64,000 nucleotides of DNA from Bdellovibrionales bacterium (GCA_947372355.1 CANBTI010000005.1:103-64102); one strand, 5' to 3'; positions 30,223-55,287 are shown, numbered from the stretch's first letter. The notes: generated by a model from the sequence alone, not told the origin. A program made the numbers and translations.

Positions 30223-31659
30223 TCAAGATTCATCAGTTGTTTCCAATTGATTTTCTTCACTTTCGTCTGCAGAAGACAATCCGTATTCTTGTTCTTTACG
30301 ATAAAGAGTTCGACGATTAATGCCAAGAATTTGAGAAGCTTTATCTTTTCTTCCGCCAGTTTTTTCAAGAATCAAACGAATATATCTTTCTTCTAATTGA
30401 TTAATTGAAGGAAAATCAATGGTAGATGTAGAAAAGAACTTATCAGCACTTTGTTCCTCAACAGATGGTAAATCCACCTCATCTACTAAATTTGAAGTGC
30501 ATAAAACTACAGCGCGTTCCACAACATTTTCTAGTTCACGAACATTACCATCCCAACGCATACTCATTAATTTTGAAATTACTCTTTTGGTAAAACCTTT
30601 AACATTAATATTATTTGCAGCAGCGTGCTTTCTAAGGAAATGCTCGGCTAGAAGAGGGATGTCATCCACTCTTTGTCTTAGTGGTGGAATGACAATTGGA
30701 ATTACACTCAGTCGATAAAATAAATCATCTCTGAAAAGACCCTCTTTCATTGCTGATTTTAAATCCTTATGTGTAGCAGAAATAATTCTAACATCGATAT
30801 CTCGAGCAATATTTTCACCTACCGCACGTACCTTTTTTTCTTGAATCACTCTTAATAGTTTAGCCTGAAGTGATACATCCATATCTCCAATTTCATCTAA
30901 AAATATAGTTCCGCCGTTTGCTTCCTCAAATAAGCCCCTTTTTCTTTGAGAAGCTCCAGTAAAAGAACCTTTCGCATGACCAAAGAGCTCAGATTCTAAG
31001 AGATTTTCAGGAATCGCGGTACAGTTGATTGCTACAAAAGGTTTGTTTGCTCTTGGTCCGCCGGCATGAATTGCTTGTGCAACCATTTCTTTTCCAGTAC
31101 CACTCTCACCCGTAACTAAAACATTGGATGTAACCTGTGAAACGCGATTCACTAAATCAAAAACAGATTTAATCGCTGCACTTTTTCCAATCATGCTTCC
31201 TAACGACCAATTACTTTTTAATTCTTGTCGAAGCGCTGTATTATCGCGTTGAAGCTGACGATACTCAATTGCTCTTTCAACATTGACGAGCATTTCAGTA
31301 AGTTTAAAAGGTTTTACAATGTAATGGAAAGCTCCTTTATTCATTGCTTCAACTGCAGTTTCAATTGATCCAAATGCAGTGATTAAAATTACTGGAATTT
31401 CTGGTCGAAGAAGTTTTAACTTTTCAGTTAACTCTAAACCGCTCATTTGTGGCATTTTAATATCTGAAATAATTAAATCAATATTGCCTTCAGTTTTATT
31501 TGAAGCATGAATCCCATCACTTGAAAAAGATTGTAGTGCATCATTTGCAGATGAAAAACAAATCACCTCATAACCGTCACCGGTTAGATAATCATCAAGT
31601 AGGGCTCTCATTTCTTTGTCATCATCAATCACTGCAATTTTAGCTTTAGAGATTTTCAT
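30223..31659 (-). CDS. Sigma-54-dependent response regulator (NtrC family: REC + AAA+ + HTH)
   Basis: REC (AVIDDDKEMR...ISDIKMPQMSG), Walker A GESGTGKE, sigma-54 contact loop ESELFGHAKGSFTGA, C-terminal Fis-type HTH. Confidence 0.85.
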   Translation of the reverse strand: MKISKAKIAVIDDDKEMRALLDDYLTGDGYEVICFSSANDALQSFSSDGIHASNKTEGNIDLIISDIKMPQMSGLELTEKLKLLRPEIPVILITAFGSIETAVEAMNKGAFHYIVKPFKLTEMLVNVERAIEYRQLQRDNTALRQELKSNWSLGSMIGKSAAIKSVFDLVNRVSQVTSNVLVTGESGTGKEMVAQAIHAGGPRANKPFVAINCTAIPENLLESELFGHAKGSFTGASQRKRGLFEEANGGTIFLDEIGDMDVSLQAKLLRVIQEKKVRAVGENIARDIDVRIISATHKDLKSAMKEGLFRDDLFYRLSVIPIVIPPLRQRVDDIPLLAEHFLRKHAAANNINVKGFTKRVISKLMSMRWDGNVRELENVVERAVVLCTSNLVDEVDLPSVEEQSADKFFSTSTIDFPSINQLEERYIRLILEKTGGRKDKASQILGINRRTLYRKEQEYGLSSADESEENQLETTDES

Positions 31660-33683: not shown

Positions 33684-33686
33684 AAG

Positions 33687-34649: not shown

Positions 34650-34686
34650 GCATCACCCCTTTAATGTTTGTTCTGCATTCATCAAA

Positions 34687-36504: not shown

Positions 36505-36507
36505 GGT

Positions 36508-36522: not shown

Positions 36523-36560
36523 TTTTAATATCTTTTACTTATTATTAATGGGGGCTTGCT

Positions 36561-36935
36561 ATGAGTAATCAGGGCATTTTAATCATTGAGGATGAAGATT
36601 GAATCAGAGAAGGACTAAGTCTTTCCTTGGAACTAGAAGGCTATACTACCTACACTGCTTCAAATGGTCAGGAGGGATTAGACATTTTGTCTCAGATCTC
36701 ATCTCCGAGTCTCATTCTTTTGGATTTAATGATGCCCGTGATGAATGGGTGGGAATTTGTTGAATCCATTAAAAAAATCAAAAAACTATCCAAAATTCCT
36801 ATTGTAATCATATCTGCATTTTACGATCAATCGAATAATATTCCTGTCCAGGGTCATTTGAAAAAACCAATTGCACTAGCCAATTTATATAAGACCATAA
36901 AAGATTTGGAAGTAACAAATGAGCAAAATGCTTAA
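36561..36935 (+). pseudogene. Receiver-domain gene interrupted by in-frame TGA at codon 14 (36600-36602)
   Basis: atg agt aat cag ggc att tta atc att gag gat gaa gat TGA atc aga gaa... = MSNQGILIIEDED*IREGLSLSLELEGY..., same frame as ORF 36627..36935; close paralog of intact REC at 39988..40356 (IIDDDETVRNTL). Confidence 0.6.
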
Positions 36936-38786: not shown

Positions 38787-38812
38787 TTTTTATGCTCTCG
38801 AACGAATATAAA

Positions 38813-38827
38813 CGGCATCAACATTGC
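38813..38827 (+). promoter_or_regulatory. Sigma-54 -24/-12 promoter upstream of patatin-like gene
   Basis: CGGCAT-caaca-TTGC exact spacing; -12 element 26 nt upstream of TTG start 38853. Confidence 0.55.
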
Positions 38828-38852
38828 TAACTTTCATTGCAGGAAGTGAAAA

Positions 38853-39991
38853 TTGAACAAAAACCTAGGATTAGTATTAATGAGCGGAGGGGCACGAGGC
38901 GCCTACCAAGCTGGCGCGTTGCGAGCGATTGCTGAAATATCAAAAACTGAAACCTTACCCTTCCCCTACTTAACTGGAATATCTGCAGGAAGCTTGAATT
39001 GTGGATTTTTAGGTTGCTATGCAGATAACTTTAATCAAGCGGTCAGCAAACTAACAGACCTTTGGTATAACATTACACCAAGTGATATCTTCACCACTGA
39101 TCCATTAAAACTTGTTAAAAATGGACTTGGATGGATTAAAGATTTTAGCATTGGTGGCGTGGTAGGAGGCGTGAAAGGACGTTCATTACTAGACACCGCT
39201 CCTTTAAGAGAACTCTTAATTAAAAATTTAGACATGACCAAATTGGTTGATCACATATCCACAGGAAAAATTAAGGGTTTTGCAGCTTCGGCAACTAACT
39301 ATTACACAGGAACTTCAGTAGTTTTTTTTGACGGAATGCCTTCTATTGAACCTTGGATTCGTAATACAAAGATGGGAATACGCACTACCATCACCATCGA
39401 GCACCTCATGGCATCATCTGCAATTCCATTTTTTTTCCTGCAGTTAAAGTGGGTAATGCATTTTACGGAGATGGGTGCATTCGAATGCATTCTCCACTGA
39501 GTCCGGCCATCAATATGGGTGCAGAAAAAATTATCGCGATTGGAGTACGACACGAGCGATTAGTAAAAAAATCCAGCGATTTAGAAACTCCTTATTTTAT
39601 ACATTATCCCTTATTTGCAGAATTGGGCGGAATGATCTTTAATGCCATATTTTTGGATTCTCTAGAAGATGACATTGAACTTTCACATTCAAAAAATGTT
39701 ATCTTTTTACTTACTTCAAAAAAAAAACAATCCGACACTCGAATAAAACATATTCCCACTATGCTTCTCAGACCATCAATCGATCTTGAAAATTTAGTAA
39801 GGAAATCAGCAAAAAAGTTTCCTATGACTATTCAACATTTTTTAAAAGGCATGGGAGCATCTAGTGAAACTGGCTGGAATTTGATGAGTTATCTTGCCTT
39901 TGATTCAACTTATACCAGTCGATTAGTGGAACTTGGATATGAAGATACAATTTTAGCCAAGAGCAAATTAACCGATTTTATGGAAATTTAA
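38853..39991 (+). pseudogene. Patatin-like phospholipase split by a frameshift in a T8 tract (39429-39436)
   Basis: ORF1 has the oxyanion hole GGARGAYQAG and GISAGS (GxSxG nucleophile); ORF2 (frame -1) has AVKVGNAFYGDGCIR (catalytic DG) and the rest of the fold. Restoring T9 gives AIPFFFPAVKVGNAFYGDG in one frame. Confidence 0.7.
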
Positions 39992-40356
39992 CAATTCAGT
40001 TTTTTTAAAGTTTCCAACAATCGTTTTAGATCGATTGGTTTTTTTAAAAAAGCATTTACTTTAATTTTTTTTGCTTGTTCACTAAATGCACTGATCACCA
40101 CTACTGGGATTTTAGAAATTAATCGATCATTTTCACGAAAATCCAAGAACTCCCATCCATCCATAATTGGCATCATGAGATCCAATAAAATCAAACAAGG
40201 TCTCGGAATTTTTTCCAAAACTTCAATCCCCTCTTGACCATTAGATGCTGCAAAAACCGTATAATGTTCTTTTTCAAGAACCTCAATTAATGTATTTCGA
40301 ACGGTTTCATCATCATCAATAATTAGGATAACTTGATTCTTCATATCTATTTTCAT
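39988..40356 (-). CDS. Single-domain response regulator receiver (CheY-like)
   Basis: ILIIDDDETVR...LILLDLMMPIMDGWEF...LKKPI. Confidence 0.8.
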   Translation of the reverse strand: MKIDMKNQVILIIDDDETVRNTLIEVLEKEHYTVFAASNGQEGIEVLEKIPRPCLILLDLMMPIMDGWEFLDFRENDRLISKIPVVVISAFSEQAKKIKVNAFLKKPIDLKRLLETLKKLNC

Positions 40357-41581
40357 GGCTGAAACTTGACTTCATCCAAACTAAAGATTCATTTACCAAA
40401 TGATCGATATTCCCCACCATTAACTTTGCATTTGATTCCGGCATTAAATCTATAGCGATTCGATTTGAAAAAATGAGTTCACTATGATCAGACTCTATTA
40501 TAAATAAAGTTGGGCACTTAATTTTTTGAAGTGGAATCAGTAAATCAGGTTTTCCATTCAGTGAAACCATGCCCTGTGTAAGAGGTTCAAATAAAGAAAC
40601 ACAATGTAAAATTGCCGCAACACCAGAGCCTGATCCAAAGAATGCTATTGGCAATTGATCAAAAACAACATTATTTTTCAACCATTGCGTGATCATAGAT
40701 AATCTTTGCGAAATAACATCAACATGATAATAATTCGAATTGGAATTAATTTCATCTTCAGTAAAGAGATCAAAAACCAAAGTTCCATAACCATTTTCAT
40801 TCAAACTTTTGGCAATTTTAAGATTTTTAATGTTTTTTCTGCAACTGCCCTTACCATGTACAAAAATAACCCAACCAGATATTTTTTTAGGCTTCACCAA
40901 TTCCCCAACAATTTTTTTACCAAACACTTCAATACTAACTTCGTTGAATGAAAAGTTTTTTAATTCTCTTTTAATCAGATCAACTTCTAAGGTTGGATAT
41001 TCTTCATACCACTCACCAACCGAGCCAAAAATTGAAGGTGTATGAGCAGAGAATAGATAATCTGCTTCTGATTTTACCAATTGGTATCCAGTAGGTGAAG
41101 CCACTGGTACTACCACAGTGATCTCTTTGGCCCCCTGAATTCTAAGCGAACGGAGCGCCACTAACATCGAAGCTCCTGATGAAATTCCATCATCTACTAA
41201 AATAACGGATCTATCCCTCACATCCATTGGATTCAATTTTAATTGAAAGATTCGTTCTATATTTTGAACTTCCATCATCGATCGTGCAATTGTTTTATCC
41301 AATTGAAATTGGTTAATATTTAAAAAATTAATTAATTCATTATTTAACCAAATCTGATAGCTATCACCTACAGCACCAATTTCATAATTTGGATTAAGTG
41401 GGGTTCCTATTTTACTGACTGCAATCATCTCTAATGAAGCTCTTAATTTTTTCGCAATCGCCTTTGCCACTGGAACGCCAGTCAACGATAAAGCCACAAC
41501 AACTGCATTTTTATACTTCCATTCGTTATAAATTGCATTTGCTAATACGATTCCTGCTTGTTCTCTATTTTTGAAATACAC
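40316..41581 (-). CDS. Fusion protein: N-terminal type-I phosphoribosyltransferase-like domain (COG1926-type) + C-terminal alpha/beta hydrolase (dienelactone-hydrolase-like)
   Basis: PRPP loop VILVDDGISSGASML; hydrolase GWVIFVHGKGS, nucleophile elbow FFGSGSGVAA, His in NIDHL; GTG start at 41581. Confidence 0.6.
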   Translation of the reverse strand: MYFKNREQAGIVLANAIYNEWKYKNAVVVALSLTGVPVAKAIAKKLRASLEMIAVSKIGTPLNPNYEIGAVGDSYQIWLNNELINFLNINQFQLDKTIARSMMEVQNIERIFQLKLNPMDVRDRSVILVDDGISSGASMLVALRSLRIQGAKEITVVVPVASPTGYQLVKSEADYLFSAHTPSIFGSVGEWYEEYPTLEVDLIKRELKNFSFNEVSIEVFGKKIVGELVKPKKISGWVIFVHGKGSCRKNIKNLKIAKSLNENGYGTLVFDLFTEDEINSNSNYYHVDVISQRLSMITQWLKNNVVFDQLPIAFFGSGSGVAAILHCVSLFEPLTQGMVSLNGKPDLLIPLQKIKCPTLFIIESDHSELIFSNRIAIDLMPESNAKLMVGNIDHLVNESLVWMKSSFSHENRYEESSYPNY

Positions 41582-41599
41582 GGTTTAATCCCCTAAGCA

Positions 41600-41866
41600 T
41601 TATTTTAAGATAATTTTTTTATCGTGATATGCAAAAACTGGTGGTGGCCTTTTGGGTGGGTATTTTGAATGGGTGTTTTGAATATGATTTGAATTTTCAA
41701 CAACCTGATTGGGCGGATTAAGCACTTGTTGTAATTGTATAATACTAAGGCTCACTAAAGTGATGCAATACACTTTCGACATTAATTTTCTCATCAGCGA
41801 TGAAAAATGTTTGAATTTATAACTTTCAGCAGAAGTTGAATAATACATAAGTTGAGCCCATCCCAA
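41600..41866 (-). CDS. Small membrane protein (first gene of sigma-54-driven operon)
   Basis: TTG at 41866 or ATG at 41848 (MYYSTSAE...); hydrophobic VYCITLVSLSIIQL; perfect-spacing sigma-54 promoter immediately upstream supports expression. Confidence 0.4.
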   Translation of the reverse strand: MGWAQLMYYSTSAESYKFKHFSSLMRKLMSKVYCITLVSLSIIQLQQVLNPPNQVVENSNHIQNTHSKYPPKRPPPVFAYHDKKIILK

Positions 41867-41876
41867 ATATTTATTA

Positions 41877-41891
41877 GCAACCTATATGCCA
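41877..41891 (-). promoter_or_regulatory. Sigma-54 -24/-12 promoter upstream of small-protein/PRTase-hydrolase/REC operon
   Basis: Minus-strand TGGCAT-atagg-TTGC (rc of GCAAcctatATGCCA). Confidence 0.55.
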
Positions 41892-41954
41892 TTAGCATTT
41901 CCAATGGACTTCAAGCAATTTTAGTTCATTGGGTTTAAAAAATCTGAATGAGAC

Positions 41955-42002
41955 AAAAAATACAATTAAGAAAGGGATGGTCCATTTAAGTCCCATCCCC
42001 TT
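41955..42002 (-). terminator. Candidate rho-independent terminator after gene 42054..42602
   Basis: aagggatgg (41972-41980) / ccatcccctt (41993-42002) stem, followed on minus strand by T-rich cttaattgtattttttgtctc. Confidence 0.4.
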
Positions 42003-42053
42003 CTCATTATTTTCCAACTCAATTATTAGTGATTTAGAAAAAAACTCCCGTCA

Positions 42054-42602
42054 TTAACGGCCATTATTGTTGTCACATGGTGTTGGAGTTGGAGTTACGG
42101 TAGATCTTGTAATATGTGCTTTAACTACACAATAGATCACTGCTCCAACAATCACCACTCCGATTACTCGCATTGCCCAACGGTAACTACCTTGACCCCC
42201 ACTATAATTAGCTCCGTGTTGGTAACTACCAGCCATGAAATTCATCGCTAGATTACCAGCTTGCTCAGCAGAAACTTGACTTGTATCAATGGAAGTTAAT
42301 AAACGATCAAAATCCGCTCTTGCAGCTTCATCTAGAGTTGTGGTGCGCATGAAATCCATGATTTCAGTTGGTGCAATACCTTGCGCTTGTAAATTTTCTA
42401 ATTTTTGTTTGAAATCTGTAATAGCAACAGTTTGAAAGTTTGGATCATTAGGATCAACTTCAACTGTCATTTTATATCGAAATTCATTAAATGTTTTAGC
42501 AATCATTTTTGAATGTAAATCAATGTTATCATTTCCTACTGCAGCGAATGCCGAGTTAGAAACCATAGCTAAAACTGTGAACAGACTGAATACTTTTTTC
42601 AT
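42054..42602 (-). CDS. Secreted/membrane-anchored protein, paralog A (signal peptide, conserved ~130-aa domain, C-terminal TM)
   Basis: MKKVFSLFTVLAMVSNSAFA; shares TFNEFRYKMTVEVDPND...RADFD.LL.S...VS.E.AGNLAM.FMA..YQ.GA.YSGG and the TM (VIGVVIVGAVIYCVV) with 42788..43777. Confidence 0.6.
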   Translation of the reverse strand: MKKVFSLFTVLAMVSNSAFAAVGNDNIDLHSKMIAKTFNEFRYKMTVEVDPNDPNFQTVAITDFKQKLENLQAQGIAPTEIMDFMRTTTLDEAARADFDRLLTSIDTSQVSAEQAGNLAMNFMAGSYQHGANYSGGQGSYRWAMRVIGVVIVGAVIYCVVKAHITRSTVTPTPTPCDNNNGR

Positions 42603-42645
42603 TACCGACTCCTTTGATTATTGTTTTGTAGACGAATCCCTAAAA

Positions 42646-42660
42646 GCAATCACTATGCCA
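42646..42660 (-). promoter_or_regulatory. Sigma-54 -24/-12 promoter upstream of paralog A
   Basis: Minus-strand TGGCAT-agtga-TTGC (rc of GCAAtcactATGCCA), 44 nt upstream of ATG 42602. Confidence 0.55.
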
Positions 42661-42711
42661 CCGCAAAATTAAATATAATGAATTAAACTTTTAAATTTTG
42701 GTCATTTTGTC

Positions 42712-42764
42712 TCAAAATAAAAAAGGTGGTAGAAATATTGAGACTTAACTCAACTTCTACCACC
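42712..42764 (-). terminator. Rho-independent terminator after paralog B
   Basis: ggtggtagaa (42725-42734) / ttctaccacc (42755-42764) 10-bp stem, followed on minus strand by ttttttattttgag. Confidence 0.5.
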
Positions 42765-42787
42765 TCTATTTTCAGCCATGTAAATCC

Positions 42788-43777
42788 TTAATTGAAGCCG
42801 TGGTCAGGAGGTCCTAACTTAATGCATAACTCGGGATAAAGAACAAACTCCAATGCTTCACCATGATCACATCCGGTAGGACTAGCTGGAACCACATGTC
42901 CACTCACTGTATTGCAACACCATCCGTAGTCAGTGTTAGTATGGGTATCTGTGCAAGTATTAGTTACTGTATTTGTTATAGTATCAGTAAGTGTATTTGT
43001 AATAGTATCCGTTACTGTATTAGTTAACGTTTCAAAATTAGTAATAGTATTATAATTGGTAACGGTTTGAACAGAGGTCACAGTATCAGTAGTTACCACT
43101 GTATTATAATTTGTTACTGTTTCTGTATTATTAATTGTTTCTACGTTCGTTACTGTTTGAGTATTCGTTTGAACTTCAGTAGTTGTCACGGTATCGGTAG
43201 TTGTTTGAGTTTCTGTGTTAGTTTGTGTTTGAGTGTTAGTTCTTGTGACCGTATCTGTTACCGTTTTTGATCGCTGATCTTTACAATGCTTAATCACTAA
43301 ATAAGTGACAACCCCAACAATGATCACACCGATCACGATTAATGCAGCCTTATAATTTGCTCTACCACCACCACTGTAACTCGCACCTTGTTGATATTTA
43401 GCTGCCATAAATCTCATTGCAAGATTACCGGCTTCTTCACTTGAAACTTTATCGAGATTCAATGAAGAAAGCATGAGATCAAAATCAGCACGAGTAGAAG
43501 AATCAAGAACTGATGAACGCATGTAATCCATCACTTCTTCAGAAGAAATCCCTTTGGCCTGCAGATCAGCCATACGGTTTTTAAAATCTTCCATTGCTTT
43601 AGCTTTATACTGCGTATCGCTTGGATCCAGTTCAACAGTCATTTTATATCTAAAATCATTGAATGTTTTAGAGATCATATTCCTATGAGAAGAATTTATT
43701 CCTTCATTCGTTATGCCAGCAAGTGCTGAATTGGAGAGCATCGTGATAATGGTTAATAACCCTATTATTTTTTTCAT
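42788..43777 (-). CDS. Secreted/membrane-anchored protein, paralog B, with long Thr-x-Thr repeat region and Cys-rich C-terminus
   Basis: MKKIIGLLTIITMLSNSALA; conserved domain and TM as paralog A; then TVTDTVTRTNTQTQTNTETQTTTDTVTTTEVQTNTQTVTNVETINNTETVTNYNTVVTTDTVT...TDTHTNT; C-term DYGWCCNTVSGHVVPASPTGCDHGEALEFVLYPELC. Confidence 0.6.
   Translation of the reverse strand: MKKIIGLLTIITMLSNSALAGITNEGINSSHRNMISKTFNDFRYKMTVELDPSDTQYKAKAMEDFKNRMADLQAKGISSEEVMDYMRSSVLDSSTRADFDLMLSSLNLDKVSSEEAGNLAMRFMAAKYQQGASYSGGGRANYKAALIVIGVIIVGVVTYLVIKHCKDQRSKTVTDTVTRTNTQTQTNTETQTTTDTVTTTEVQTNTQTVTNVETINNTETVTNYNTVVTTDTVTSVQTVTNYNTITNFETLTNTVTDTITNTLTDTITNTVTNTCTDTHTNTDYGWCCNTVSGHVVPASPTGCDHGEALEFVLYPELCIKLGPPDHGFN
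42950..43270 (-). repeat. Degenerate short-period coding repeats (gtNacN units) encoding the Thr-x-Thr tract
   Basis: Repetitive gtaac/gttac/gtatc units across about 320 nt inside gene 42788..43777. Confidence 0.6.
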
Positions 43778-43856
43778 TTATTTTTTCCTATTCTTGTTTT
43801 CTATTTTTTAAATACAATTTGCATTCAGCGCCTACCAATCGCGCCAAAAAGTGAAA

Positions 43857-43871
43857 GCAATGAATATGCCA
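43857..43871 (-). promoter_or_regulatory. Sigma-54 -24/-12 promoter upstream of paralog B
   Basis: Minus-strand TGGCAT-attca-TTGC (rc of GCAAtgaatATGCCA), 80 nt upstream of ATG 43777. Confidence 0.55.
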
Positions 43872-43930
43872 TTTTAAATTAAAATATATTTGATGTTTGA
43901 ATCGAGAATCGGAAGTTTAGTCTCATTTTT

Positions 43931-43973
43931 AAGCCCTTAAAAAGAAAAAAGGTGGTGATTTTAACCACCACCT
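43931..43973 (-). terminator. Orphan terminator-like hairpin (minus-strand orientation) between paralog B promoter and pfkA
   Basis: aggtggtg (43949-43956) / caccacct (43965-43972) with 8-nt loop; on minus strand followed by tttttctttttaaggg; no annotated minus-strand gene ends here. Confidence 0.35.
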
Positions 43974-44088
43974 TCTTTGGGTCATCGCAGACGTGGGCAG
44001 AATTAACAATACAAACTGCATAAAGTTAGCTCTACGCTGCCTTTGTCGACCCATCCATGAAGATTTAAAAGCATAATTTATGCCATTG

Positions 44089-46454: not shown

Positions 46455-47336
46455 ATGATTACTCGTAGCTCATTTCAACAATTTAATTTTAATTTTCTAG
46501 AGATTGAATCCGAGGATGATTCCGGCTCACTCCTTCGCTCACTTCCGGATCAAGGATTGGCGATTGTGGGCACTCGATATCCTCAACAGAAATCCTTTGA
46601 ATTACTTGAAAATACGATCAAAGATCTTGCCGGTTCTAATTTAGTTATTGTTTCTGGATTTGCTAGAGGTGTTGATTCTCGTGCGCATGAACTCGCGATT
46701 GAACATGGATTAAAAACAATTGCCATCTTAGGCTGTGGTTTGAATATCGACTATCCGAGAGAAAATCGGGCCTTAAGAAAAAAGATTCTAGATCATGGAG
46801 GAATGATCATCTCCCCTTTTGAGCGGGATGAACCCGCATTACCAAGAAATTTTTTAAATCGGAATCAACTCATCGCCTATTTCTCGAAAGCGGTTTGGGT
46901 AGTAGAAGCGGCGGCCATCTCTGGAACGCTCAATACCGCAAAACATGCTTCCGAACTGAATCGTGATTTATATGCAACTCCCTGTTTTCCAAATGATCCG
47001 TTTTTTGAGGGAAATCAAAAACTGCTTTCTCAACAAAATTCTGAAAAATATCCCGTTGCTGATCTATTTTATGGCGTTAATTCATTCGGTAAAACTTGGA
47101 AAAACATCAGCATGGTGAATACGATTCATAAAACTACCAAAAGAAAAAATAGGAGCAAAATTCAAAATTGGATTTTAAATCTACAATTTGAACAAGGCGA
47201 ATGCAGAGTTCAAAGTTTGATGAATTTTGCTATATCAAAAGGAATCACTGCTGGGCAGTTTTATCAGGAATATGAAATTGAGCTCAATTCAGGGAAAATT
47301 ACTGAAAACCTGCTAGGGATAGTAGATCTAAAGTAA
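46455..47336 (+). CDS. dprA: DNA-processing protein DprA (Smf)
   Basis: LAIVGTRYPQQKS...VIVSGFARGVDSRAHELAI...TIAILGCGLNIDYPREN...RNQLIAYFSKAVWVVEAAAISGTLNTAKHASELNRDLYATP Rossmann-like DprA core. Confidence 0.7.
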   Translation: MITRSSFQQFNFNFLEIESEDDSGSLLRSLPDQGLAIVGTRYPQQKSFELLENTIKDLAGSNLVIVSGFARGVDSRAHELAIEHGLKTIAILGCGLNIDYPRENRALRKKILDHGGMIISPFERDEPALPRNFLNRNQLIAYFSKAVWVVEAAAISGTLNTAKHASELNRDLYATPCFPNDPFFEGNQKLLSQQNSEKYPVADLFYGVNSFGKTWKNISMVNTIHKTTKRKNRSKIQNWILNLQFEQGECRVQSLMNFAISKGITAGQFYQEYEIELNSGKITENLLGIVDLK

Positions 47337-48480
47337 TGGGGCCCTTTACCCATTGATTCATCAATTGCTCTACAGTTCTCTCCAACTCTCCAATATTTCC
47401 CCGCCACTCTTGATTCATAAACCAAGTTTCAACTAAAGGATCAATCTGGACTGGTGGTACTCCACGTTTTCTACAAGCCTTATCAAAAAAATAGGGCAGT
47501 AAATCAGTTTGAATATCTTTTTTTCGTTCCCGGAGCGGCTTTAATATAATTTTATCTAAAGTGAGCTTTGCATAGAGTTCAACATGAAAAGTTCCATCTT
47601 TCACTTTTTGAGAAAGATCTTTTGAACTGGTAGCAATGATTCTAAAATCGACAGGAAATTTTTTTGCACCACGAACCCGAGTGAAAAAATCATTTTCAAG
47701 TGCTGAAAAAAGGGCATTTTGCGCTTCAACACCAAGGGCATCCACTTCATCTAATAATATCGTGCCCCCTAAACCTAACTCAAAAGATCCTGGTTTAGAA
47801 AAAAAGCTCATTGGCATCGCACCTTTTTCTAGCCCAAACAACTCTCCTACTTGAAAAACATTTGGTATGGCGTCGCAATGGACTTGAATAAATGGATTCC
47901 TCGCCCGATCAGATTTACGATGAATTTCATAAGCAATACTTCTTTTGCCTGAGCCGACTTCACCAAACATAAATACATGAGAGTTAGTAGCCGAAATCCT
48001 TTCAGTTTGCTCGCGTAATTGAATGGTACTTTGCTCAGTACCAAATAATGGAACCGGAACAGGTCCCACTCCCTGTGCATTCATCATTTCAAGAGCAGGT
48101 TCTCTTTTTTTACGTTTACGGGTTTGAATCGCTTTTTTCAAAATGCGTGAAAGATCATCTTGATCAAAAGGTTTTAAGATAAAGTCAAAGGCTCCACTTT
48201 TCAGTGCCGTCACCGCGGCCTCAATAGTACCAAATGCCGTGATTAAAATAACGGGTAAATCAGGCGAGTAATCCTTACAGTATTTTAAAACATCTAATCC
48301 TGTATGCTCAGGCATGGAGAGATCAGTAATCACCACACTGACATCTTCAGTGTTCAATGTTTCCAAAGCATTCTTAAAGCCATCGAAACTAAATACCTCA
48401 TAACCCTCTCGGGTGAGAAGGGCATCTAAGATTTTTCTAATATTCGGTTCGTCGTCTATGACGATGATTTTATCACGCAT
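47299..48480 (-). CDS. NtrC-family REC-AAA+ regulator lacking an intact GAFTGA loop and lacking the C-terminal HTH
   Basis: REC (IIVIDDEPNIR...ITDLSMPEHTG), AAA+ Walker A GEVGSGKRS, but sigma-54 contact loop reads VGELFGLEKGAMPMSFF (GAFTGA->GAMPMS) and protein ends right after AAA+ domain (393 aa). Confidence 0.75.
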   Translation of the reverse strand: MRDKIIVIDDEPNIRKILDALLTREGYEVFSFDGFKNALETLNTEDVSVVITDLSMPEHTGLDVLKYCKDYSPDLPVILITAFGTIEAAVTALKSGAFDFILKPFDQDDLSRILKKAIQTRKRKKREPALEMMNAQGVGPVPVPLFGTEQSTIQLREQTERISATNSHVFMFGEVGSGKRSIAYEIHRKSDRARNPFIQVHCDAIPNVFQVGELFGLEKGAMPMSFFSKPGSFELGLGGTILLDEVDALGVEAQNALFSALENDFFTRVRGAKKFPVDFRIIATSSKDLSQKVKDGTFHVELYAKLTLDKIILKPLRERKKDIQTDLLPYFFDKACRKRGVPPVQIDPLVETWFMNQEWRGNIGELERTVEQLMNQWVKGPITLDLLSLAGFQ

Positions 48481-50429
48481 AACTTAATTTTTACGCTAGT
48501 ACCCTCTCCCTCAGTGGATTCTAAGGATATTTCTCCCTGACTAAACTTTACCAGTCTTTCACAAATCGATAAACCTAAACCAGTGCCTGTTTCAAATGTA
48601 GTAAAAAAAGGCTGAAATACCTTCTTTTTAACATCTTCGGTCATGCCCACACCATTATCTTTAATGTAAAACCCAGAGTCTTCTAACCCTACTTCAATCA
48701 ACTTGGCCTGAGCTTTTAATGCATTTTGAATCAAATTCATTAGGATTTGCTGTATGTGATCGGCAACACCCAAAACCATAATGGGTTTTAAGCTGTGAGC
48801 TTCAAATTTAATCTCTGCTTGCTTACCATAAAATGTAGAAAGATTTTGAATGGAACGTTCAAGACATTCACCGAGGTTGAGTTCTTCCAACTGATCACCG
48901 GGCGCATTCGCGAATTCAAGAAACTGATTCACCAAGCGATTCAATCTTTGAACTTCATCTTGAATTACTTTTACCCAAGGATCAGAACTGGATGCAATGA
49001 GGTTGGTTGCCCCTTGAATAGCCCCTAGAGGATTGCGAACTTCATGTGCCAATCCTGCAGCCATTTCACCTAATAAAATCAGCCGATCCCGTTCACGGGC
49101 ATAATCAATTTGAGAAATCTTCACCGAGGTTTTTTCAACTTCCTGGAGCGCTTTAAATATTTTGGAATATAAACTATAGTCCTCGTGCCAATCATCAATA
49201 GAAACAGCAGCAGAAAGCATCACAAACATAATCGGAATAGGATGTTTGAGATCTGAAGAGTAAATAGGAAAAATCACATCTACTTCCATCAAATCTAAAT
49301 AGTTGAGAATCCCTTCAAGATTTTTTTGTAACTCACTCGTCACTACCTGATCTTTTTCCATCTGGATGAGCTCTCGATGAATGATCGGAATGAGTGAAGA
49401 ATTAGAGTTTCGATATAAATATTTCTCAACTGCTTCAGGAAGCTTCGTTGTTCTTTCTAATTCTAATACTTTTGTTTTGGAATTTGGAATCCAAATTAAA
49501 AATGATTTTTGAATCAACTCTTCCAGTTCATTTTTACTCGTGATGAAAGGAAGAGAGGTTAAAAATTTATTGAGTTGAAGTTCACCCAATTGGTTCTTAC
49601 CCACTAATAACTTTCTACCAAGAAAACGAAAAAATGAAATGAGCGGATTCCATAAAATCAACACCGCAAAAGTAAGTAAAAAGGAATTGAGAAAAAAGAG
49701 CGGAAAACTTTCACTCATGTATTGATAAAGAAGAGCGAAAAACCCGGTAATAACCAGGGAAAGAATCACGGTTGCGAAAAAACGGGTGGTGAGAGCCTGT
49801 ATACTCAAAATTTTCTGAGGCGATACCAATTGACTAATAAAGATTAAATAAATGGTGAGTAAAAGATTACCCAATGCTGGAATCGTGAAACCCAATTGAG
49901 GGATATGATCAAATGAACAGGTGATTAAACTCACTACTAACCCAAAATATAGCCCAATTCTTTTTGTGGGTGAAAAAAAGTCTACGCTCACAGGAACGCC
50001 TAAAAATAAATCTTTGGCCATCACGTACATAAATTCAAAAACAACAAAGACCGGCCAAAAGGAAACAATGTTCCAAAATACATCACCACTTCCGAGTGAA
50101 AAAGAAATCATCACACTTAAAATCAATGCACCAAAAACACTGATCCAGCGGAGCGACTTACTCACCCCATCCTCACGGGAAAGAATTTTTGAAAGGATGG
50201 TTACCCCCACCGGCACTAGCCAAACGTGAAAAATCCAATGAATATCTTTGGATAGCCTTCCAACCAACGTGGCGTAAGAAACAAAACTAAGTGCCCAGAT
50301 GGAAATGAATAAACAAAGTACGGTGAAGAGGATTGCTAGTTTTTGTTTCCAGTTTCTATAAAGGGTCCAAACGCCGATGGATAAACTGGCTAGCCCTAAA
50401 ATGAGCGATGTTTGCTTTAGAAGATTCAT
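48456..50429 (-). CDS. Membrane sensor histidine kinase with large N-terminal multi-pass TM sensor region
   Basis: About 9 predicted TM helices in first 300 aa; H-box MAAGLAHEVRNPLGAIQG; HATPase_c (GLGLSICERLVKFSQGEISLES); 25-nt overlap with downstream regulator. Confidence 0.8.
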   Translation of the reverse strand: MNLLKQTSLILGLASLSIGVWTLYRNWKQKLAILFTVLCLFISIWALSFVSYATLVGRLSKDIHWIFHVWLVPVGVTILSKILSREDGVSKSLRWISVFGALILSVMISFSLGSGDVFWNIVSFWPVFVVFEFMYVMAKDLFLGVPVSVDFFSPTKRIGLYFGLVVSLITCSFDHIPQLGFTIPALGNLLLTIYLIFISQLVSPQKILSIQALTTRFFATVILSLVITGFFALLYQYMSESFPLFFLNSFLLTFAVLILWNPLISFFRFLGRKLLVGKNQLGELQLNKFLTSLPFITSKNELEELIQKSFLIWIPNSKTKVLELERTTKLPEAVEKYLYRNSNSSLIPIIHRELIQMEKDQVVTSELQKNLEGILNYLDLMEVDVIFPIYSSDLKHPIPIMFVMLSAAVSIDDWHEDYSLYSKIFKALQEVEKTSVKISQIDYARERDRLILLGEMAAGLAHEVRNPLGAIQGATNLIASSSDPWVKVIQDEVQRLNRLVNQFLEFANAPGDQLEELNLGECLERSIQNLSTFYGKQAEIKFEAHSLKPIMVLGVADHIQQILMNLIQNALKAQAKLIEVGLEDSGFYIKDNGVGMTEDVKKKVFQPFFTTFETGTGLGLSICERLVKFSQGEISLESTEGEGTSVKIKLCVIKSSS

Positions 50430-50444: not shown

Positions 50445-51104
50445 CTAGACTCCGAAAATAAGAAAAGTTACCCAAAGGGCGAGTCCGCTCACAATCGGAA
50501 TCGAAAAATTATCATCGATCTCTAAAGGAATCATCTCAGCCCCACCCCCAGCGAGTCCGCCGGCTAATGCAATCAGAATTGCAGGACCAGCTGGAATCGA
50601 GTTCATGAGCATCGTGATAAAAGTAATCACACAACAAATCCCCATTCCTGCTGCAGTTCCAATTAATGATTTACCATTAGAAAAACGGGGGCCCAAATCA
50701 CCCCAAAGAATTCCAAAAATTGAGGATATTGGATCCCCAAAGGCTAAATACAAAATTGATAAAATCGCGATCAATTTGGGGAAAATAATTACCGAAAGCA
50801 GTACAGAACCAACGTAAAATGGAGTTCCACTGATTCGATCTACCTCACTCTTACGCATGATCGGCCCCATCACCTTGATGGCAACGTTATTAAGGCCGGG
50901 TAAATTTAATCGCGCATATTCAATTCCCGTGAAGATCACGAATGCGATTAGCAAAATGGTGACTGCTTGGGGTTTAGTGATCCCTAATCCATAGATCAAG
51001 GCCATGGAAACACCCATTCCACAGTGCCAAAATTTACGGGCAAGGTGCAAATCATTACGAAGCTTTAATCGCCAAGGCGATGACATCTCTAGTTTTTCTT
51101 GCAT
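50445..51104 (-). CDS. Integral membrane protein (unknown; possibly lipid-modifying CTP-transferase/kinase-like fold), first gene of HK/RR operon
   Basis: 6-7 TM helices, Gly-rich C-terminal TM region; 16 nt upstream of HK. Confidence 0.5.
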   Translation of the reverse strand: MQEKLEMSSPWRLKLRNDLHLARKFWHCGMGVSMALIYGLGITKPQAVTILLIAFVIFTGIEYARLNLPGLNNVAIKVMGPIMRKSEVDRISGTPFYVGSVLLSVIIFPKLIAILSILYLAFGDPISSIFGILWGDLGPRFSNGKSLIGTAAGMGICCVITFITMLMNSIPAGPAILIALAGGLAGGGAEMIPLEIDDNFSIPIVSGLALWVTFLIFGV

Positions 51105-51139
51105 GCAGTGTTTAGTATACCCTATTCTTAATACTAATC

Positions 51140-52081
51140 ATGTGGAATCCATCATCTCAGAGACAGATTTGGGCAGTAGGAGGCGGTAAGGGCGGAGTAG
51201 GCAAGAGCCTCATTGCGTCTTCGATCGCTTATACCATTGCGCGTTTAGGCTTTCCAGTGATCGCTATCGATCTGGATTTGGGTGGAGCAAATCTTCACAC
51301 CGTTCTCGGACAACAGCCACCCCAAAAGTGTCTTTCTGATTTTTTATCTAATCCAAATATTTCACTCATGGATTGTGTAGTAGACACTCCCTATCCAAAT
51401 TTAAAAATGATTGCCGGTGCAAAAGATGATCTCAATATCACTCAACTCACCGAAGAAAAAAAATACCGTTTAATGCAGGAAATTCAGTATATTTCTGGTT
51501 ATTTTGTGGTGCTCGACTTAGGTGCTGGAATTAATCAATATACTTTAGATTTTTTTAATCTCGCGGATACAGGAATCATTACGGTGTTGCCTGAACCTAC
51601 TTCGATTGAAAATGCATATCGTTTTTTAAAGGCCGCTTATTATCAGCGCTTACTTAAAAATCCGATGCTAGAAAACATTCATCCTTTGATTGAAGCTGCA
51701 ATGACTCCAAATAATATTCATGGAATTCATTCTCCAACGGATCTGCTCAATGAAGTTTCTTTTCAAGATAAAATTCTTGCTGCAGACCTTAAAAAAGTGA
51801 TTAAAGAATTTCGCCCTAAGTTAATTTTGAACCAATCCAGGTCACAAACTGATATCGATGTTGGCTTTTCGATGAAGAGTGTCGCAAAAAAATATTTTGG
51901 TATTGATTTAGATTATCTAGGGTATCTTGAATATGAGCCAAATGTTTGGCAGTCGGTGAGACGAATGCGTCCGATACTGGCAGAATATCCAAATTCAAGG
52001 ATTGCACTTCATATGGAAAGAATTTGTAACTACTTAATCAGGCAAGCAAGAACAGGACAAACTCTCAATGCAGTTGAATGA
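51140..52081 (+). CDS. ParA/MinD-family P-loop ATPase
   Basis: Deviant Walker A AVGGGKGGVGKS; about 310 aa. Confidence 0.75.
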   Translation: MWNPSSQRQIWAVGGGKGGVGKSLIASSIAYTIARLGFPVIAIDLDLGGANLHTVLGQQPPQKCLSDFLSNPNISLMDCVVDTPYPNLKMIAGAKDDLNITQLTEEKKYRLMQEIQYISGYFVVLDLGAGINQYTLDFFNLADTGIITVLPEPTSIENAYRFLKAAYYQRLLKNPMLENIHPLIEAAMTPNNIHGIHSPTDLLNEVSFQDKILAADLKKVIKEFRPKLILNQSRSQTDIDVGFSMKSVAKKYFGIDLDYLGYLEYEPNVWQSVRRMRPILAEYPNSRIALHMERICNYLIRQARTGQTLNAVE

Positions 52082-52721
52082 TGAACCACTGAGTTATTAC
52101 GATACTCTTGAATTAACAGCGGATGCCACTCCTCAGGAAATTCGTTCAGCTTATCTCCGCTTAAAATCCTCATATTCTAAGGATAATGTTGCCAATTATT
52201 CAGTTTATACCCGCGAAGAAACGGATGAAATGCTGAAAAAAATTGAAGAGGCATATTTGATTCTTTCCAATCCCGAAAGAAGAAAAGCTTACGATTTATC
52301 TCACCAAGGTCATTCATCGGTAAGTTCTCAAGCCGAACACTCTTCCTTCCGCGCTGAAGCCGCCCCTACTCCAATCATGCCTTCTATTTCTGGAAGCATG
52401 AGCAGCACTCCTGAAGTAGATCCTTTTTTTGCTCATTCCGAAGCTGATAGCATTGCTTCGACAGAACAAGAATGGTCTGGCAGTTCCATTCGAAGAATTC
52501 GTGAATCAAAAAGAGTGACGATCGAAGATTTAGCCGATTATACCCGAATCTCAAAAAGCTATCTCATCGCACTCGAAGAAGAAAATTATCAAAAGCTTCC
52601 TGCAGTGGTTTATGTTCGAGGCTTTTTACAGCAAATTAGTAAACGATTAAAACTGCCAACAGAATTAGTGGTTCAAAAATACATTGAACGCTTGAAGACT
52701 GCACGTCCTGATAAGTTTTAA
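52068..52721 (+). CDS. J-like domain (HPD replaced) fused to RodZ-type HTH (XRE-like) domain
   Basis: N-term YYDTLELTADATPQEIRSAYLRLKSSYSKDNV...ILSNPERRKAYD = J-domain helices II-III with SKD in place of HPD; C-term IRRIRESKRVTIEDLADYTRISKSYLIALEEENYQKLPAVVYVRGFLQQ matches RodZ N-terminal HTH. Confidence 0.5.
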   Translation: MQLNDEPLSYYDTLELTADATPQEIRSAYLRLKSSYSKDNVANYSVYTREETDEMLKKIEEAYLILSNPERRKAYDLSHQGHSSVSSQAEHSSFRAEAAPTPIMPSISGSMSSTPEVDPFFAHSEADSIASTEQEWSGSSIRRIRESKRVTIEDLADYTRISKSYLIALEEENYQKLPAVVYVRGFLQQISKRLKLPTELVVQKYIERLKTARPDKF

Positions 52722-53775: not shown

Positions 53776-55260
53776 TTATTCATCATTGCCACAATGTCCT
53801 GGCCCAACTTCACCATTATTATAATGGTCTAAAGTATCATGCCAGTTTGAAACATTATCTTTTTCGTTATCATCTAAGTTTTGCCAGTCATTTTGATTGT
53901 GATTGGAGAGGAATTGGTCACATTGGCTAATGATCGATGATACAGCTGATGTATCAGAGCCATGAGCTTTACTTAATTTAGCTGCAAGTAATTGTGCATA
54001 AAGTTTAGTAATTCCATTTGAAGACGATCCATAAACTTTTTGTCCAAGTACATCGATTGCTGTAGAAGTGGAAACAATGTTAAAAGACTTTGTTCCACCC
54101 ACTGTTCCTAGACATTGAACTAAGTTAGGAGTAACCGCAGCCATGTGATTTTTCCAATATCCAATTGTGTAAGTACAATTGTTTCCGCCAGTAGGGTAAG
54201 GAGTTGCTGTTGGAGTCGCAGTCGGTGCTGGAGTCGGAGTCGCAGTCGGTGCTGGAGTCGGAGTCGCAGTCGGAGTCGCAGTCGGAGTCGCAGTCGGTGC
54301 TGGAGTCGGAGTCGGTGCTCCGTATGGCAAGCAACCTTTGAATATATGATGATTATATTGACCTGCACCGTATGCAGATTGAGCAATAAAATGTCCATTC
54401 AATTGTCCTGATGGGAAAGTAACATCAGCAAATGGAGCCAAAATTGAACCTTCAAAAGAAATGTTTCCGATCCAGATTGATTGAGCGGTTGGAAAGTTAA
54501 ACACTACATGACTTTGATCTGTACCGTGCAATTCCATTGCAAAACTTGCAATCGTAATTGCAGAGCCTTTTACGTTGATCAATGCTGTTGAATCTGCAGG
54601 AATGGTTAAACTTAAAAATTGTGAACGTTCGAGATCATCCGTAGTCATAGTAAAAACGTTGATCACTGGATCAGTACCCACTAAAATAGTGTCGTGTCTT
54701 GAACTGATGTTTTCTAATGTCACCGTTGAATTAGAAACCAACCCACCTAAAGTAGTGGACATCGATTTTAAGTAGTCACCAGAATTTGCAAAACTAAGAG
54801 GGCTTACATGTTGAGTAAATCCACCAAAAGCAGACGTTGCGAATTTAGTTAAAGACCCACCATAAATAACCTTACCTTTATTTACAGCACCACTTTGAAA
54901 ATTTAAATCTCCATTAACGATGAGGTCTACTCGATTAGCATCTTCATCAAGAATTTCACCTACACTATAGTTTTGAATAGTTGCATTTCCGCCAACCGCT
55001 AATCTTCCTTCTGTATCCGAGCTTGGCGCTTCAAAATTACCTAGTGTAAAAACGTTGAAATCCCATGCATCTGATAAAGCTGCTTCATAACAAACACCGT
55101 AATTTGGCGTAATATGGGATGCCGATTGACTTAAATCAATGGAGTAAGATGGGTCAGTACCAGGAAGTACACATCCTGAAACAATGAACATCGTTCCTAA
55201 AATTAAAGAAACATTTTTAAAATTTTTATTAAACGAATTTTGTTTTCTCATAGATCTCAT
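53776..55260 (-). CDS. Lipoprotein with N-terminal choice-of-anchor-A-like domain, Pro/Thr/Ala repeat linker and Cys-containing C-terminal domain
   Basis: Lipobox IVSGC; DAWDFNVFTLGNFEAPSSDTEGRLAVGGNATIQNYSVG resembles choice-of-anchor A family; linker APTPTPAPTATPTATPTATPTPAPTATPTPAPTATPTATP. Confidence 0.6.
   Translation of the reverse strand: MRSMRKQNSFNKNFKNVSLILGTMFIVSGCVLPGTDPSYSIDLSQSASHITPNYGVCYEAALSDAWDFNVFTLGNFEAPSSDTEGRLAVGGNATIQNYSVGEILDEDANRVDLIVNGDLNFQSGAVNKGKVIYGGSLTKFATSAFGGFTQHVSPLSFANSGDYLKSMSTTLGGLVSNSTVTLENISSRHDTILVGTDPVINVFTMTTDDLERSQFLSLTIPADSTALINVKGSAITIASFAMELHGTDQSHVVFNFPTAQSIWIGNISFEGSILAPFADVTFPSGQLNGHFIAQSAYGAGQYNHHIFKGCLPYGAPTPTPAPTATPTATPTATPTPAPTATPTPAPTATPTATPYPTGGNNCTYTIGYWKNHMAAVTPNLVQCLGTVGGTKSFNIVSTSTAIDVLGQKVYGSSSNGITKLYAQLLAAKLSKAHGSDTSAVSSIISQCDQFLSNHNQNDWQNLDDNEKDNVSNWHDTLDHYNNGEVGPGHCGNDE
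54205..54320. repeat. Tandem 12-nt DNA repeats (gtcggagtcgca / gtcggtgctgga variants) encoding the PT(A) linker
   Basis: Near-perfect tandem units visible directly; spurious ORFs 54120..54398(-), 54125..54334(-), 54145..54411(+) arise from this repeat. Confidence 0.8.
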
Positions 55261-55272
55261 ACCTTAAATAAA

Positions 55273-55287
55273 GCAATTGCGGTGCCA
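55273..55287 (-). promoter_or_regulatory. Perfect-consensus sigma-54 -24/-12 promoter for the lipoprotein gene
   Basis: Minus-strand TGGCAC-cgcaa-TTGC (rc of GCAAttgcgGTGCCA). The -12 GC is only 13-14 nt from ATG 55260, which implies a leaderless or very short-leader mRNA, or the start at the in-frame ATG 55251. Confidence 0.65.

Follow-up and report, generated by a model that had tools for sequence, protein, structure and literature searches.

A response regulator of Bdellovibrionales descended from sigma-54 activators and predicted to act without sigma-54 contact, DNA binding, or ATP hydrolysis

Enhancer-binding proteins (EBPs) are defined by three features: DNA binding, the contact of the GAFTGA loop with sigma-54, and ATP-driven remodeling. 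The Fis-type helix-turn-helix (HTH) domain (PF02954) is usual, not universal, in these proteins, and conservative variants of the loop (GSFTGA, GAYTGA, and GAFSGA) occur. FlgR of Helicobacter pylori and CtcC of Chlamydia consist of a receiver domain (REC) and an AAA+ domain with nothing beyond it, and they work without DNA binding; both have retained GAFTGA and a functional ATPase, and both are still sigma-54 activators. A class of EBPs without a DNA-binding domain is recognized (PMC7175178). In TyrR, PhhR, HupR, HsfA, Brucella NtrX, Vibrio VpsR, and the NtrC proteins of Rhodobacter and Caulobacter, GAFTGA is lost or altered and the proteins act with sigma-70, and several atypical EBP homologs have nonconsensus ATPase motifs and function without ATP hydrolysis (PMC6158489, PMC10274813). 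All of these proteins have kept their C-terminal DNA-binding domain and regulate while bound to DNA. The known exceptions lose one of the three features, which is DNA binding in FlgR and CtcC and the sigma-54 contact in TyrR, NtrX, and VpsR. Here, a response regulator is described that, with its whole clade, appears to have lost all three and yet keeps a phosphorylatable receiver, a cognate kinase, and an AAA+ fold under purifying selection; it is encoded in a 64,000-nucleotide stretch of DNA of a Bdellovibrionales bacterium (GCA_947372355.1 CANBTI010000005.1:103-64102), which is referred to below as the window. In the literature searched, no REC-AAA+ protein is described in which GAFTGA and the HTH domain are both missing, and no Bdellovibrio study of this locus was found.

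The regulator and its sensor histidine kinase are encoded on the minus strand at 47299-50429, exactly where a preliminary description of the window had placed a two-component pair. The regulator (393 aa; 47299..48480; assigned from the ORF, Pfam, and an AlphaFold2 [AF2] model) consists of REC (residues 5-114; 48139..48468; Pfam, 102.9 bits), a linker (residues 121-147; 48040..48120; delimited by the family consensus and the predicted local distance difference test score, pLDDT, of the AF2 model), a degenerate AAA+ core of the sigma-54-activator type (Sigma54_activat, residues 146-308; 47557..48045), and a lid (AAA_lid_14 in Pfam, residues 317-388; 47317..47532), and it has no DNA-binding domain. 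The kinase (657 aa; 48456..50429; ORF, Pfam) and the regulator overlap, the start of the regulator lying 25 nt inside the kinase gene. The stop codon of the regulator lies inside the convergent dprA gene (46455..47336, plus strand; ORF, Pfam), the 3' ends sharing 38 bp (47299-47336) on opposite strands. This convergent arrangement is conserved, and a 3' overlap of similar size (35-44 bp) is kept in the loci L086, L090, L091, L092, and L093.

The absence of an HTH domain after the AAA+ domain, which had been noticed at the outset, is borne out on several counts. The protein stops five residues past the lid match, and PF02954 (HTH_8) is matched neither in the regulator nor in any of the 82 members of its family. 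There is no frameshifted HTH downstream, the three minus-strand frames 3' of the gene being full of stops, and there is no space for a downstream HTH ORF because dprA overlaps the 3' end of the regulator. The L1 loop (residues 220-231; 47788..47823) reads GAMPMSFFSKPG in the alignment where the canonical sequence is GAFTGAxxxKPG, so that its length is preserved. Residues 220-225, GAMPMS, match GAFTGA of NtrC1 and NtrC4 column by column without a gap in the HMMER alignments, and the same correspondence is found in a MAFFT alignment with 38 canonical relatives. No GAFTGA-like string is found elsewhere in the protein, so an intact loop in another register does not explain the difference, and the earlier reading of this loop as GAMPMS is confirmed.

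The fold of the AAA+ domain is well preserved. The regulator scores 133.7 bits against PF00158 (cut-off 20.2), compared with 238.2 bits for a canonical EBP in the same window (30223..31659, minus strand), which is not part of the system and serves as internal control, being a REC-AAA+-HTH_8 activator with GSFTGA, FRDDLFYRLSV, and GNVRELE. The AF2 model of the regulator (pLDDT 88) superposes on the AAA+ domain of NtrC1 with a TM-score of 0.93-0.95 and a root-mean-square deviation of 1.4-1.5 Å, and NtrX is among the best matches of the structural search. On the basis of the model and the profile match, the domain is assigned to the sigma-54-interaction type. Walker A reads GEVGSGKR, with K179 kept, and D244 and E245 of Walker B are kept as well. 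The other catalytic positions are replaced: the sensor I asparagine (N280 of NtrC1) is S286, the arginine finger (R299 of NtrC1) is K305, the RxDL arginine (R293 of NtrC1, R300 of FleQ) is H299, the sensor II arginine (R357 of NtrC1) is G364 (in WRGNIGEL), and the asparagine of the glutamate switch (N64 of PspF) is H201. These residues were mapped by counting along the NtrC1 alignment, and their roles are taken from the literature on NtrC1 and other bacterial EBPs (finger R299, sensor I N280, sensor II R357, Walker B D238/E239; PMC3841738, PMC7175178) and on FleQ (the RxDL arginine and the cis-acting sensor II; PMC10723142). The preliminary description had spoken of a complete AAA+ core, which is correct for the fold and for Walker A and B and incorrect for these replaced positions; as far as can be judged from the alignment, the regulator does not have the catalytic set of an EBP ATPase.

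When compared with the described systems, the regulator shares REC, the AAA+ fold, and the lid with the canonical group-I EBPs (NtrC, NtrC1, and the AtoC/ZraR type). Its architecture is that of FlgR and CtcC, from which it differs by the loss of GAFTGA and of the ATPase arginines, which places it outside their class. The TyrR/NtrX/VpsR/HupR type is defined by the loss of GAFTGA together with a retained DNA-binding domain (PMC6158489); the regulator is also without GAFTGA but has no DNA-binding domain, and hence does not belong to this type either. In the NtrC proteins of Rhodobacter and Caulobacter, GAFTGA is lost through a partial deletion of L1 (PMC10274813), and NtrX aligns to the regulator with a four-residue gap at L1; in contrast to these shortened loops, L1 of the family described here keeps its length and carries a new conserved motif. 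FleT of Rhodobacter (Cereibacter) sphaeroides, an AAA+ protein of the activator family that has neither a regulatory nor a DNA-binding domain and acts through contact with FleQ as a subunit of a sigma-54 activator (PMC7175178, PMC7277832), resembles the regulator in the missing DNA-binding domain; the regulator differs from it by a phosphorylatable REC and by the absence of the sigma-54 and ATPase determinants. FleN binds the AAA+ domain of FleQ directly (PMC10723142). An activator-type AAA+ protein encoded near a FleN/FlhG-like ATPase is also found here, the likeness being one of gene adjacency, but in FleQ the DNA-binding domain and GAFTGA are present and the ATPase is active, whereas the regulator is without the first two and several of its ATPase residues are replaced. 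Judged by its sequence, the regulator is clearly descended from EBPs, and it departs from functional EBPs in its loop, its arginines, its missing HTH domain, and its target promoter.

The same protein is found throughout a well-delimited family. A search of 5.8 billion proteins gave about 80 family clusters (45-100% identity), which, a few fragments aside, are 372-401 aa long (typically about 390 aa). After the family there is a sharp drop to canonical activators of 446-501 aa (one of 385 aa) with at most 42% identity, all of which carry PF02954 except the 385-aa protein. No family member is intermediate between the degenerate and the canonical state, and in an exhaustive profile search of 1.84 billion representatives nothing further was found between the family and the canonical activators except two more degenerate proteins, P0380 and P0422. 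The family comes from uncultured bacteria, its sources all being metagenomes or metagenome-assembled genomes (MAGs) labeled Bdellovibrionales or Bdellovibrio; a scan of GTDB genomes with over-general patterns gave two family loci (L006 and L007) among the 80 returned.

Residues were counted in the family (n = 82) and in its canonical relatives (n = 38). The phenylalanine of GAFTGA is present in 0/82 and 38/38 sequences, respectively; in the family, this essential position holds M, T, S, L, G, or N and is never aromatic. The threonine, found in 37 of the 38 canonical relatives, is a proline (P223) in 80/82, and F227 is present in 77/82, giving the family motif GAxP-hydrophobic-x-[FL]F, in which P223 and F227 are family-specific. 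The residue following the Walker A lysine is arginine (R180) in 80 of the 82 and glutamate in 36/38 canonical relatives; sensor I is serine in 68 and asparagine in 35/38. The remaining positions are uniform in the canonical relatives (38/38 each): the RxDL arginine is replaced by histidine in 76/79 family sequences, the arginine finger by lysine in 62 (arginine is found in 10), the sensor II arginine by glycine in 76/79, and the Walker B aspartate by glutamate in 59. Fixed new residues of the family are R180, F209, Q210, P223, F227, H299, and G364, together with GVGPVPxPLFG in the linker. The linker carries the longer family-specific motif REPxxxMSAxGVGPVPxPLFG, with A135, G137, P142, P144, and F146 as discriminating positions, and its residues 125-137 have pLDDT values below 50 in the AF2 model, which predicts disorder rather than a coiled coil of the NtrC1 type. 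Because the same substitutions recur in 62-80 of 82 related clusters and in 0/38 canonical relatives, they are not due to chance or sequencing error. The earlier conclusion that the regulator cannot be a classical EBP is therefore well supported, since the phenylalanine and threonine of GAFTGA are absent in 82/82, the HTH domain is missing, the trans- and cis-acting arginines are lost, and the neighboring sigma-54 promoter is gone, as described below.

In some orthologs the nucleotide-binding motifs themselves have decayed. The Walker A lysine has become A in P0075, Q in P0077, and T in P0069, and it is also missing from P0380, where the motif reads GEEGSGRR; P0077 also has ES at Walker B and a deleted finger region, and P0079 has lost the Walker B glutamate (EG). 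In P0422 the whole P-loop is lost (GPPGALLR), while the family L1 motif is still there (GATPSTFFSRPG). P0077, P0380, and P0422 are encoded at the syntenic position; their receiver residues are retained, and they have no HTH. Since the family as a whole has substitutions at the finger, sensor I, and sensor II, and orthologs without the Walker A lysine or the P-loop exist, mechanical work by ATP hydrolysis cannot be the conserved function. This weakens the proposal, also made in the preliminary description, that the protein is an AAA+ remodeler acting on another target, because the premise of that proposal was a complete ATPase core; with this premise wrong, the reading shifts toward a hydrolysis-independent adaptor, and an action through protein-protein contacts, the other possibility then named, is the most plausible one. 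The gene has nevertheless remained full length and is strongly constrained. Between the window protein and its closest orthologs, the proportion of nonsynonymous differences (pN) is 0.11-0.14 and that of synonymous differences (pS) is 0.76-0.83; pN and pS are given instead of dN/dS, as synonymous changes have reached saturation in even the most similar ortholog pairs. These values indicate strong purifying selection on the full-length protein.

The receiver and the kinase both appear to be functional. The phosphorylation residues D9, D10, D53 (the phospho-acceptor), T81, and K103 are all present in the regulator, and they are kept in every family sequence that covers them, with one D9E as the exception; the acidic pocket, acceptor aspartate, threonine, and lysine predict a receiver of a two-component response regulator. 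The kinase matches HisKA (50.8 bits) and HATPase_c (77.2 bits), and its H, N, G1, and G2 boxes (H462, N565/N569, D591-G593-G595, and G615-G617-G619) do not vary among 33 sequences, as expected of a HisKA-type sensor kinase. In its AF2 model (pLDDT 78), nine membrane helices (residues 3-25, 30-55, 58-83, 88-109, 116-143, 154-172, 182-201, 206-238, and 242-274), connected by very short loops, form the N-terminal domain (residues 3-274; 49608..50423; also seen in the hydropathy profile). The nine helices of the sensor are thus as first described, although the domain comprises about 275 rather than about 300 residues. It has no Pfam or NCBIfam match even at E = 10. The model further contains an alpha/beta domain (276-430), the DHp domain (431-507), and the catalytic domain (515-650), the DHp and catalytic part (residues 431-650; Pfam HisKA and HATPase_c) being encoded at 48480..49139. 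Orthologs of the kinase are codistributed with the regulator. As the alignments show, kinase and receiver keep every residue that is predicted to be required for phosphotransfer.

The two genes are part of a conserved locus. All family loci examined share one gene order: Lon, RluD, DnaJ-HTH_25, a divergent MinD-family ATPase, a membrane protein of about 219 aa, the kinase, the regulator, and the convergent dprA. In the window, the 219-aa polytopic membrane protein (50445..51104, minus strand) has no Pfam or NCBIfam match even at E = 10 and no match in a PDB sequence search; the source names and PF01148 matches of its homologs assign it to the CTP-dependent diacylglycerol/polyprenol (dolichol) kinase family. 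This kinase-like gene is found directly 5' of the sensor kinase and the degenerate regulator in 16/16 clade loci with enough DNA, and the three genes are one compact operon. The combination of a membrane-embedded sensor with an adjacent lipid-kinase-like gene suggests, by inference, a lipid or envelope cue.

A canonical counterpart of the pair is present at the same position in other lineages. In L008, a MAG of Bdellovibrionia, the order is DnaJ-HTH, the FleN-like gene, the kinase-like gene, a sensor kinase (HK707), and the regulator, followed by GDH, Ddl, and DprA. The L008 regulator (454 aa) is canonical, with GESGTGKE, GAFTGA, FREDLYYRLNV, GNIRQLE, and an HTH. The regulators of this type (L008 and P0083, the latter from L088) are 41-42% identical to the window protein and are paired with a homologous nine-helix kinase; the window kinase is homologous end to end, membrane domain included, to the 700-aa kinase paired with P0083 (31% identity, E 8e-90). 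The pair also lies in the same position, between the FleN-like and kinase-like genes and dprA. By comparison, the window regulator is without HTH_8, GAFTGA, the arginine finger, the sensor I asparagine, and the sensor II arginine, and it would share a putative sigma-70-type promoter, and hence a transcript, with the kinase-like gene rather than lying near a sigma-54 promoter. DprA of L088 (canonical pair) is 38% identical to that of the window, versus 41-51% for L086, L092, and L093 (degenerate pair), which shows that the organism with the canonical pair is about as far from the window as the most divergent organisms with the degenerate pair. From the flanks of L008 and the DprA distances, the family is best read as the positional ortholog of the canonical activator, degenerated in situ. 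The P0083-type pair had at first been read as a within-genome paralog; this was revised after L008 showed the same flanking genes. In L115, a contig of a sister lineage, two overlapping ORFs (11918-12628 and 12561-13334) together make up the canonical-type regulator downstream of a 701-aa kinase; the split reflects a frameshift, an error of assembly, or an inactivation that arose independently.

The promoter of the locus differs as well. In L008, a -24/-12 motif, TGGCATCTGGTTTGCT (3427-3442), is located 44 nt upstream of the kinase-like gene, and in L089, from Bdellovibrionota without the two-component pair, a perfect motif, TGGCACTTTCGTTGCT (9942-9957), is found at the same 44-nt distance. 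In a survey of 80 metagenomic loci with the kinase-like gene (at most one mismatch, within 220 nt upstream), the sigma-54 motif is present in 29/39 nonredundant sister loci (kinase-like protein 44-54% identical) and in 0/19 loci of the degenerate-regulator clade (at least 61% identical). The Fisher p value of 4e-8 for this comparison is descriptive only; evolutionarily, the promoter switch is one event, coincident with the degeneration. The operon of the window has no -24/-12 motif, either in its genes or ahead of them, and the neighboring sigma-54 promoter expected of an EBP target thus appears to be missing in the clade. Instead, the clade has a conserved element, TTGTCAAG-N14-GGTATACT/TATAAT; the subclade of the window keeps GGGTATACT in a 35-nt intergenic region, and in the window this contains a putative sigma-70 -10 element, TATACT (51114..51119, minus strand; consensus match), 5' of the operon. 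A sigma-70-type promoter would therefore have replaced the sigma-54 promoter of the sister lineages. At GDH, beside the canonical pair, the search for a sigma-54 promoter gave a chance-level intragenic match in L088 and none in L092. The sigma-54 promoter of the kinase-like gene is strongly conserved in the sister lineages of Bdellovibrionota (L008, L089, and many of L105-L155). A recurrent CTAAC-N5-7-CTAAC repeat, about 40-70 nt upstream (for example in L127, L106, L144, and L151), could be an activator or IHF site.

The organism itself apparently still uses sigma-54, because the window holds a canonical activator and nine -24/-12 motifs. The scan of the 64-kb window (TGGCAC-N5-TTGCW, at most one mismatch) gave 9 motifs where 2.2 are expected, and 0/100 shuffles reach 9. 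Sigma-54 has also been reported in Bdellovibrio-like organisms by genome comparisons (PMC13147790).

Taken together, these data are best explained by a functional two-component system in which a onetime sigma-54 activator has been exapted as the regulator, now a phosphorylation-gated, hydrolysis-independent module for protein binding or oligomerization, a reading to which a probability of roughly 0.55 is given. Ancestrally, the nine-helix kinase would have sensed a membrane signal, and its activator would have driven the kinase-like gene through the sigma-54 promoter of that gene. In the degenerate clade, this transcriptional link to the kinase-like gene would have been replaced, and the regulator would bind proteins, or oligomerize, on phosphorylation without the need for ATP hydrolysis, nucleotide binding possibly being retained in most family members. 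The remodeled, more hydrophobic L1 loop and the conserved proline-rich linker would be offered to a partner protein, for which the membrane proteins of the operon, the adjacent FleN/FlhG-like ATPase, and other activators can be considered.

Several points weigh against this reading. K179 and the DE of Walker B are intact in the window regulator, and K305 could be a weak finger, which would allow a slow ATP turnover. The sigma-70 promoter is a consensus match. Promoter switch and degeneration are one coincident event, unreplicated, and the link between canonical activator and sigma-54 promoter is an adjacency in two loci (L008 and L115). Most sister loci have the sigma-54 promoter without a two-component system nearby, and a count of 8-mers gave no convincing activator site shared by the sigma-54 promoters 5' of the kinase-like genes. 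The partners of the regulator are candidates, and a canonical paralog may persist elsewhere in the genome, as the orthology is drawn from the comparison of loci.

In a more specific form of this idea, which is put forward tentatively, the regulator became after the sigma-54 to sigma-70 switch a phospho-switchable pseudo-ATPase adaptor that would directly control a membrane or cytoskeletal partner via L1 and the linker, the candidates being the polyprenol/diacylglycerol-kinase-like enzyme, its own nine-helix kinase, and the FleN/FlhG-like ATPase. If this is true, it would be the first descendant of an EBP with a post-translational output.

It is also conceivable, although rather unlikely, that the regulator enters mixed rings with the canonical activators of the cell and, depending on phosphorylation, tunes or blocks their ATPase activity and output, as a modulating or poison subunit comparable to FleT/FleQ and HrpR/HrpS. 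Heteromeric EBPs are known (PMC7175178, PMC7277832; see also PMC9542535 and PMC10084136), the AAA+ fold and the length of the regulator are preserved, and the same genome has at least one canonical activator and many sigma-54 promoters. Because the arginine finger acts in trans (PMC7175178, PMC3841738, PMC10723142), a subunit with lysine or histidine would disable the site of its neighbor. On the other hand, the closest canonical relative is the positional ortholog in other lineages and not a demonstrated paralog in the same genome, and the regulator is only about 34% identical to the canonical activator of the window. The constraint pattern is also inverted relative to canonical activators: between L008 and L088 the identity is 60% in REC, 80% in the AAA+ core, and 58% in the lid, whereas between the window regulator and L004 it is 66, 54, and 37%, and between the window regulator and L086 it is 62, 45, and 38%, respectively. 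Such a relaxation of the AAA+ domain relative to REC is unexpected for precise ring packing.

This same pattern, with REC as the best-conserved domain and a relaxed core and lid, is what would be predicted if the protein worked through its receiver alone, draining or buffering phosphoryl groups or acting in the manner of CheY, with the AAA+ part as a slowly decaying remnant. The progressive decay of the ATPase motifs, as far as the loss of the P-loop, is in agreement with this view. However, in none of the full-length members among the roughly 80 clusters is the AAA+ part shortened or lost, the AAA+ core and REC have similar pN values (0.10-0.14 and 0.08-0.12, respectively) with pS saturated, the new residues listed above (R180, F209, Q210, P223, F227, H299, and G364) are fixed in the AAA+ domain, as is the motif in the linker, and the length and motif of L1 are kept even in the most degenerate member. 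A pure phosphate sink is accordingly considered improbable, to much the same degree as the mixed rings.

It is very unlikely that the regulator is still a sigma-54 activator that works from solution, like FlgR or CtcC, with a variant contact loop. Activators without a DNA-binding domain are known (PMC7175178), the organism has sigma-54 promoters, and Walker A and B are intact in the window protein; but the position of the essential phenylalanine is never aromatic in the family, the threonine has become a proline in 80/82, substitutions are present at the finger, sensor I, sensor II, and the glutamate switch, orthologs without the Walker A lysine or the P-loop occur, and the sigma-54 promoter is lost at the neighboring ancestral target. 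A pseudogene or an assembly or annotation artefact, in which a normal activator would have been truncated or frameshifted and for which the public names "DNA-binding NtrC family response regulator" and "sigma-54-dependent Fis family transcriptional regulator" might speak, is already refuted by the family-wide conservation, since the 385-400-aa architecture is repeated in about 80 clusters from many independent assemblies, the stop lies inside the convergent dprA, the downstream frames are closed, and pN is far below pS.

These database names are wrong for the members of the family, and they would inflate predicted sigma-54 regulons. Given that the ancestral state is kept at the same locus in sister lineages, the family is a natural experiment on what becomes of an AAA+ activator after its sigma-54 promoter has been replaced, and the ancestral state together with the coincident promoter switch makes it, at the level of the sequences compared, a well-defined case of exaptation. 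The family may also open the way to an undescribed mode of two-component output in predatory Bdellovibrio-like bacteria.

The divergent neighbor of the operon (51140..52081, plus strand) is a MinD-family ATPase whose best solved relatives are FleN (5j1j, E 1.2e-20) and FlhG (4rz2), ahead of MinD. It adjoins the kinase-like gene in nearly all loci, also in those without the two-component pair. In the window it lies outside any flagellar cluster and overlaps a gene for a protein with a J-domain and a RodZ-type HTH_25 domain (52068-52721, plus strand), and this ATPase/J-domain pair is kept beside the polyprenol-kinase-like gene throughout Bdellovibrionota, whether or not the two-component system is present. 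A coupling of the system to the FleN-like and DnaJ-HTH neighbors, considered from synteny, was dropped; as both are adjacent also in lineages without the pair, synteny alone is no evidence for it.

The sigma-54-type motifs of the window are located at 24713-24728 and 36508-36523 on the plus strand and at 24689-24704, 33289-33304, 34686-34701, 41876-41891, 42645-42660, 43856-43871, and 55272-55287 on the minus strand. Several of them lie 12-95 nt 5' of minus-strand ORFs without a Pfam match (42054-42602 and 42788-43777) or of a truncated REC ORF (34149-34649). The sole perfect match (55272-55287) is directly 5' of a gene for a 494-aa protein (53776-55260, minus strand), which looks secreted and combines long PT/PA repeats with a pAdhesive_15 domain of the ice-binding-like adhesive kind. 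The canonical activator at 30223-31659 adjoins a tandem-Usp protein (29288-30190, minus strand) and a divergent REC-HisKA-HATPase hybrid kinase (31814-32950, plus strand). Most of the motifs fall in the region of about 24000-44000, where the GC content is 0.33-0.36, compared with 0.38-0.43 elsewhere, and which could be a genomic island of its own or a regulon block. This low-GC region also encodes a DACNK sensor domain fused to a DisA-type diadenylate cyclase domain (34795-35958, minus strand), which suggests that the protein makes c-di-AMP, and its surroundings are rich in signaling genes, among them two for stand-alone REC proteins (33690-34124 and 39991-40371) and one for a PAS-GAF protein (37656-38786).

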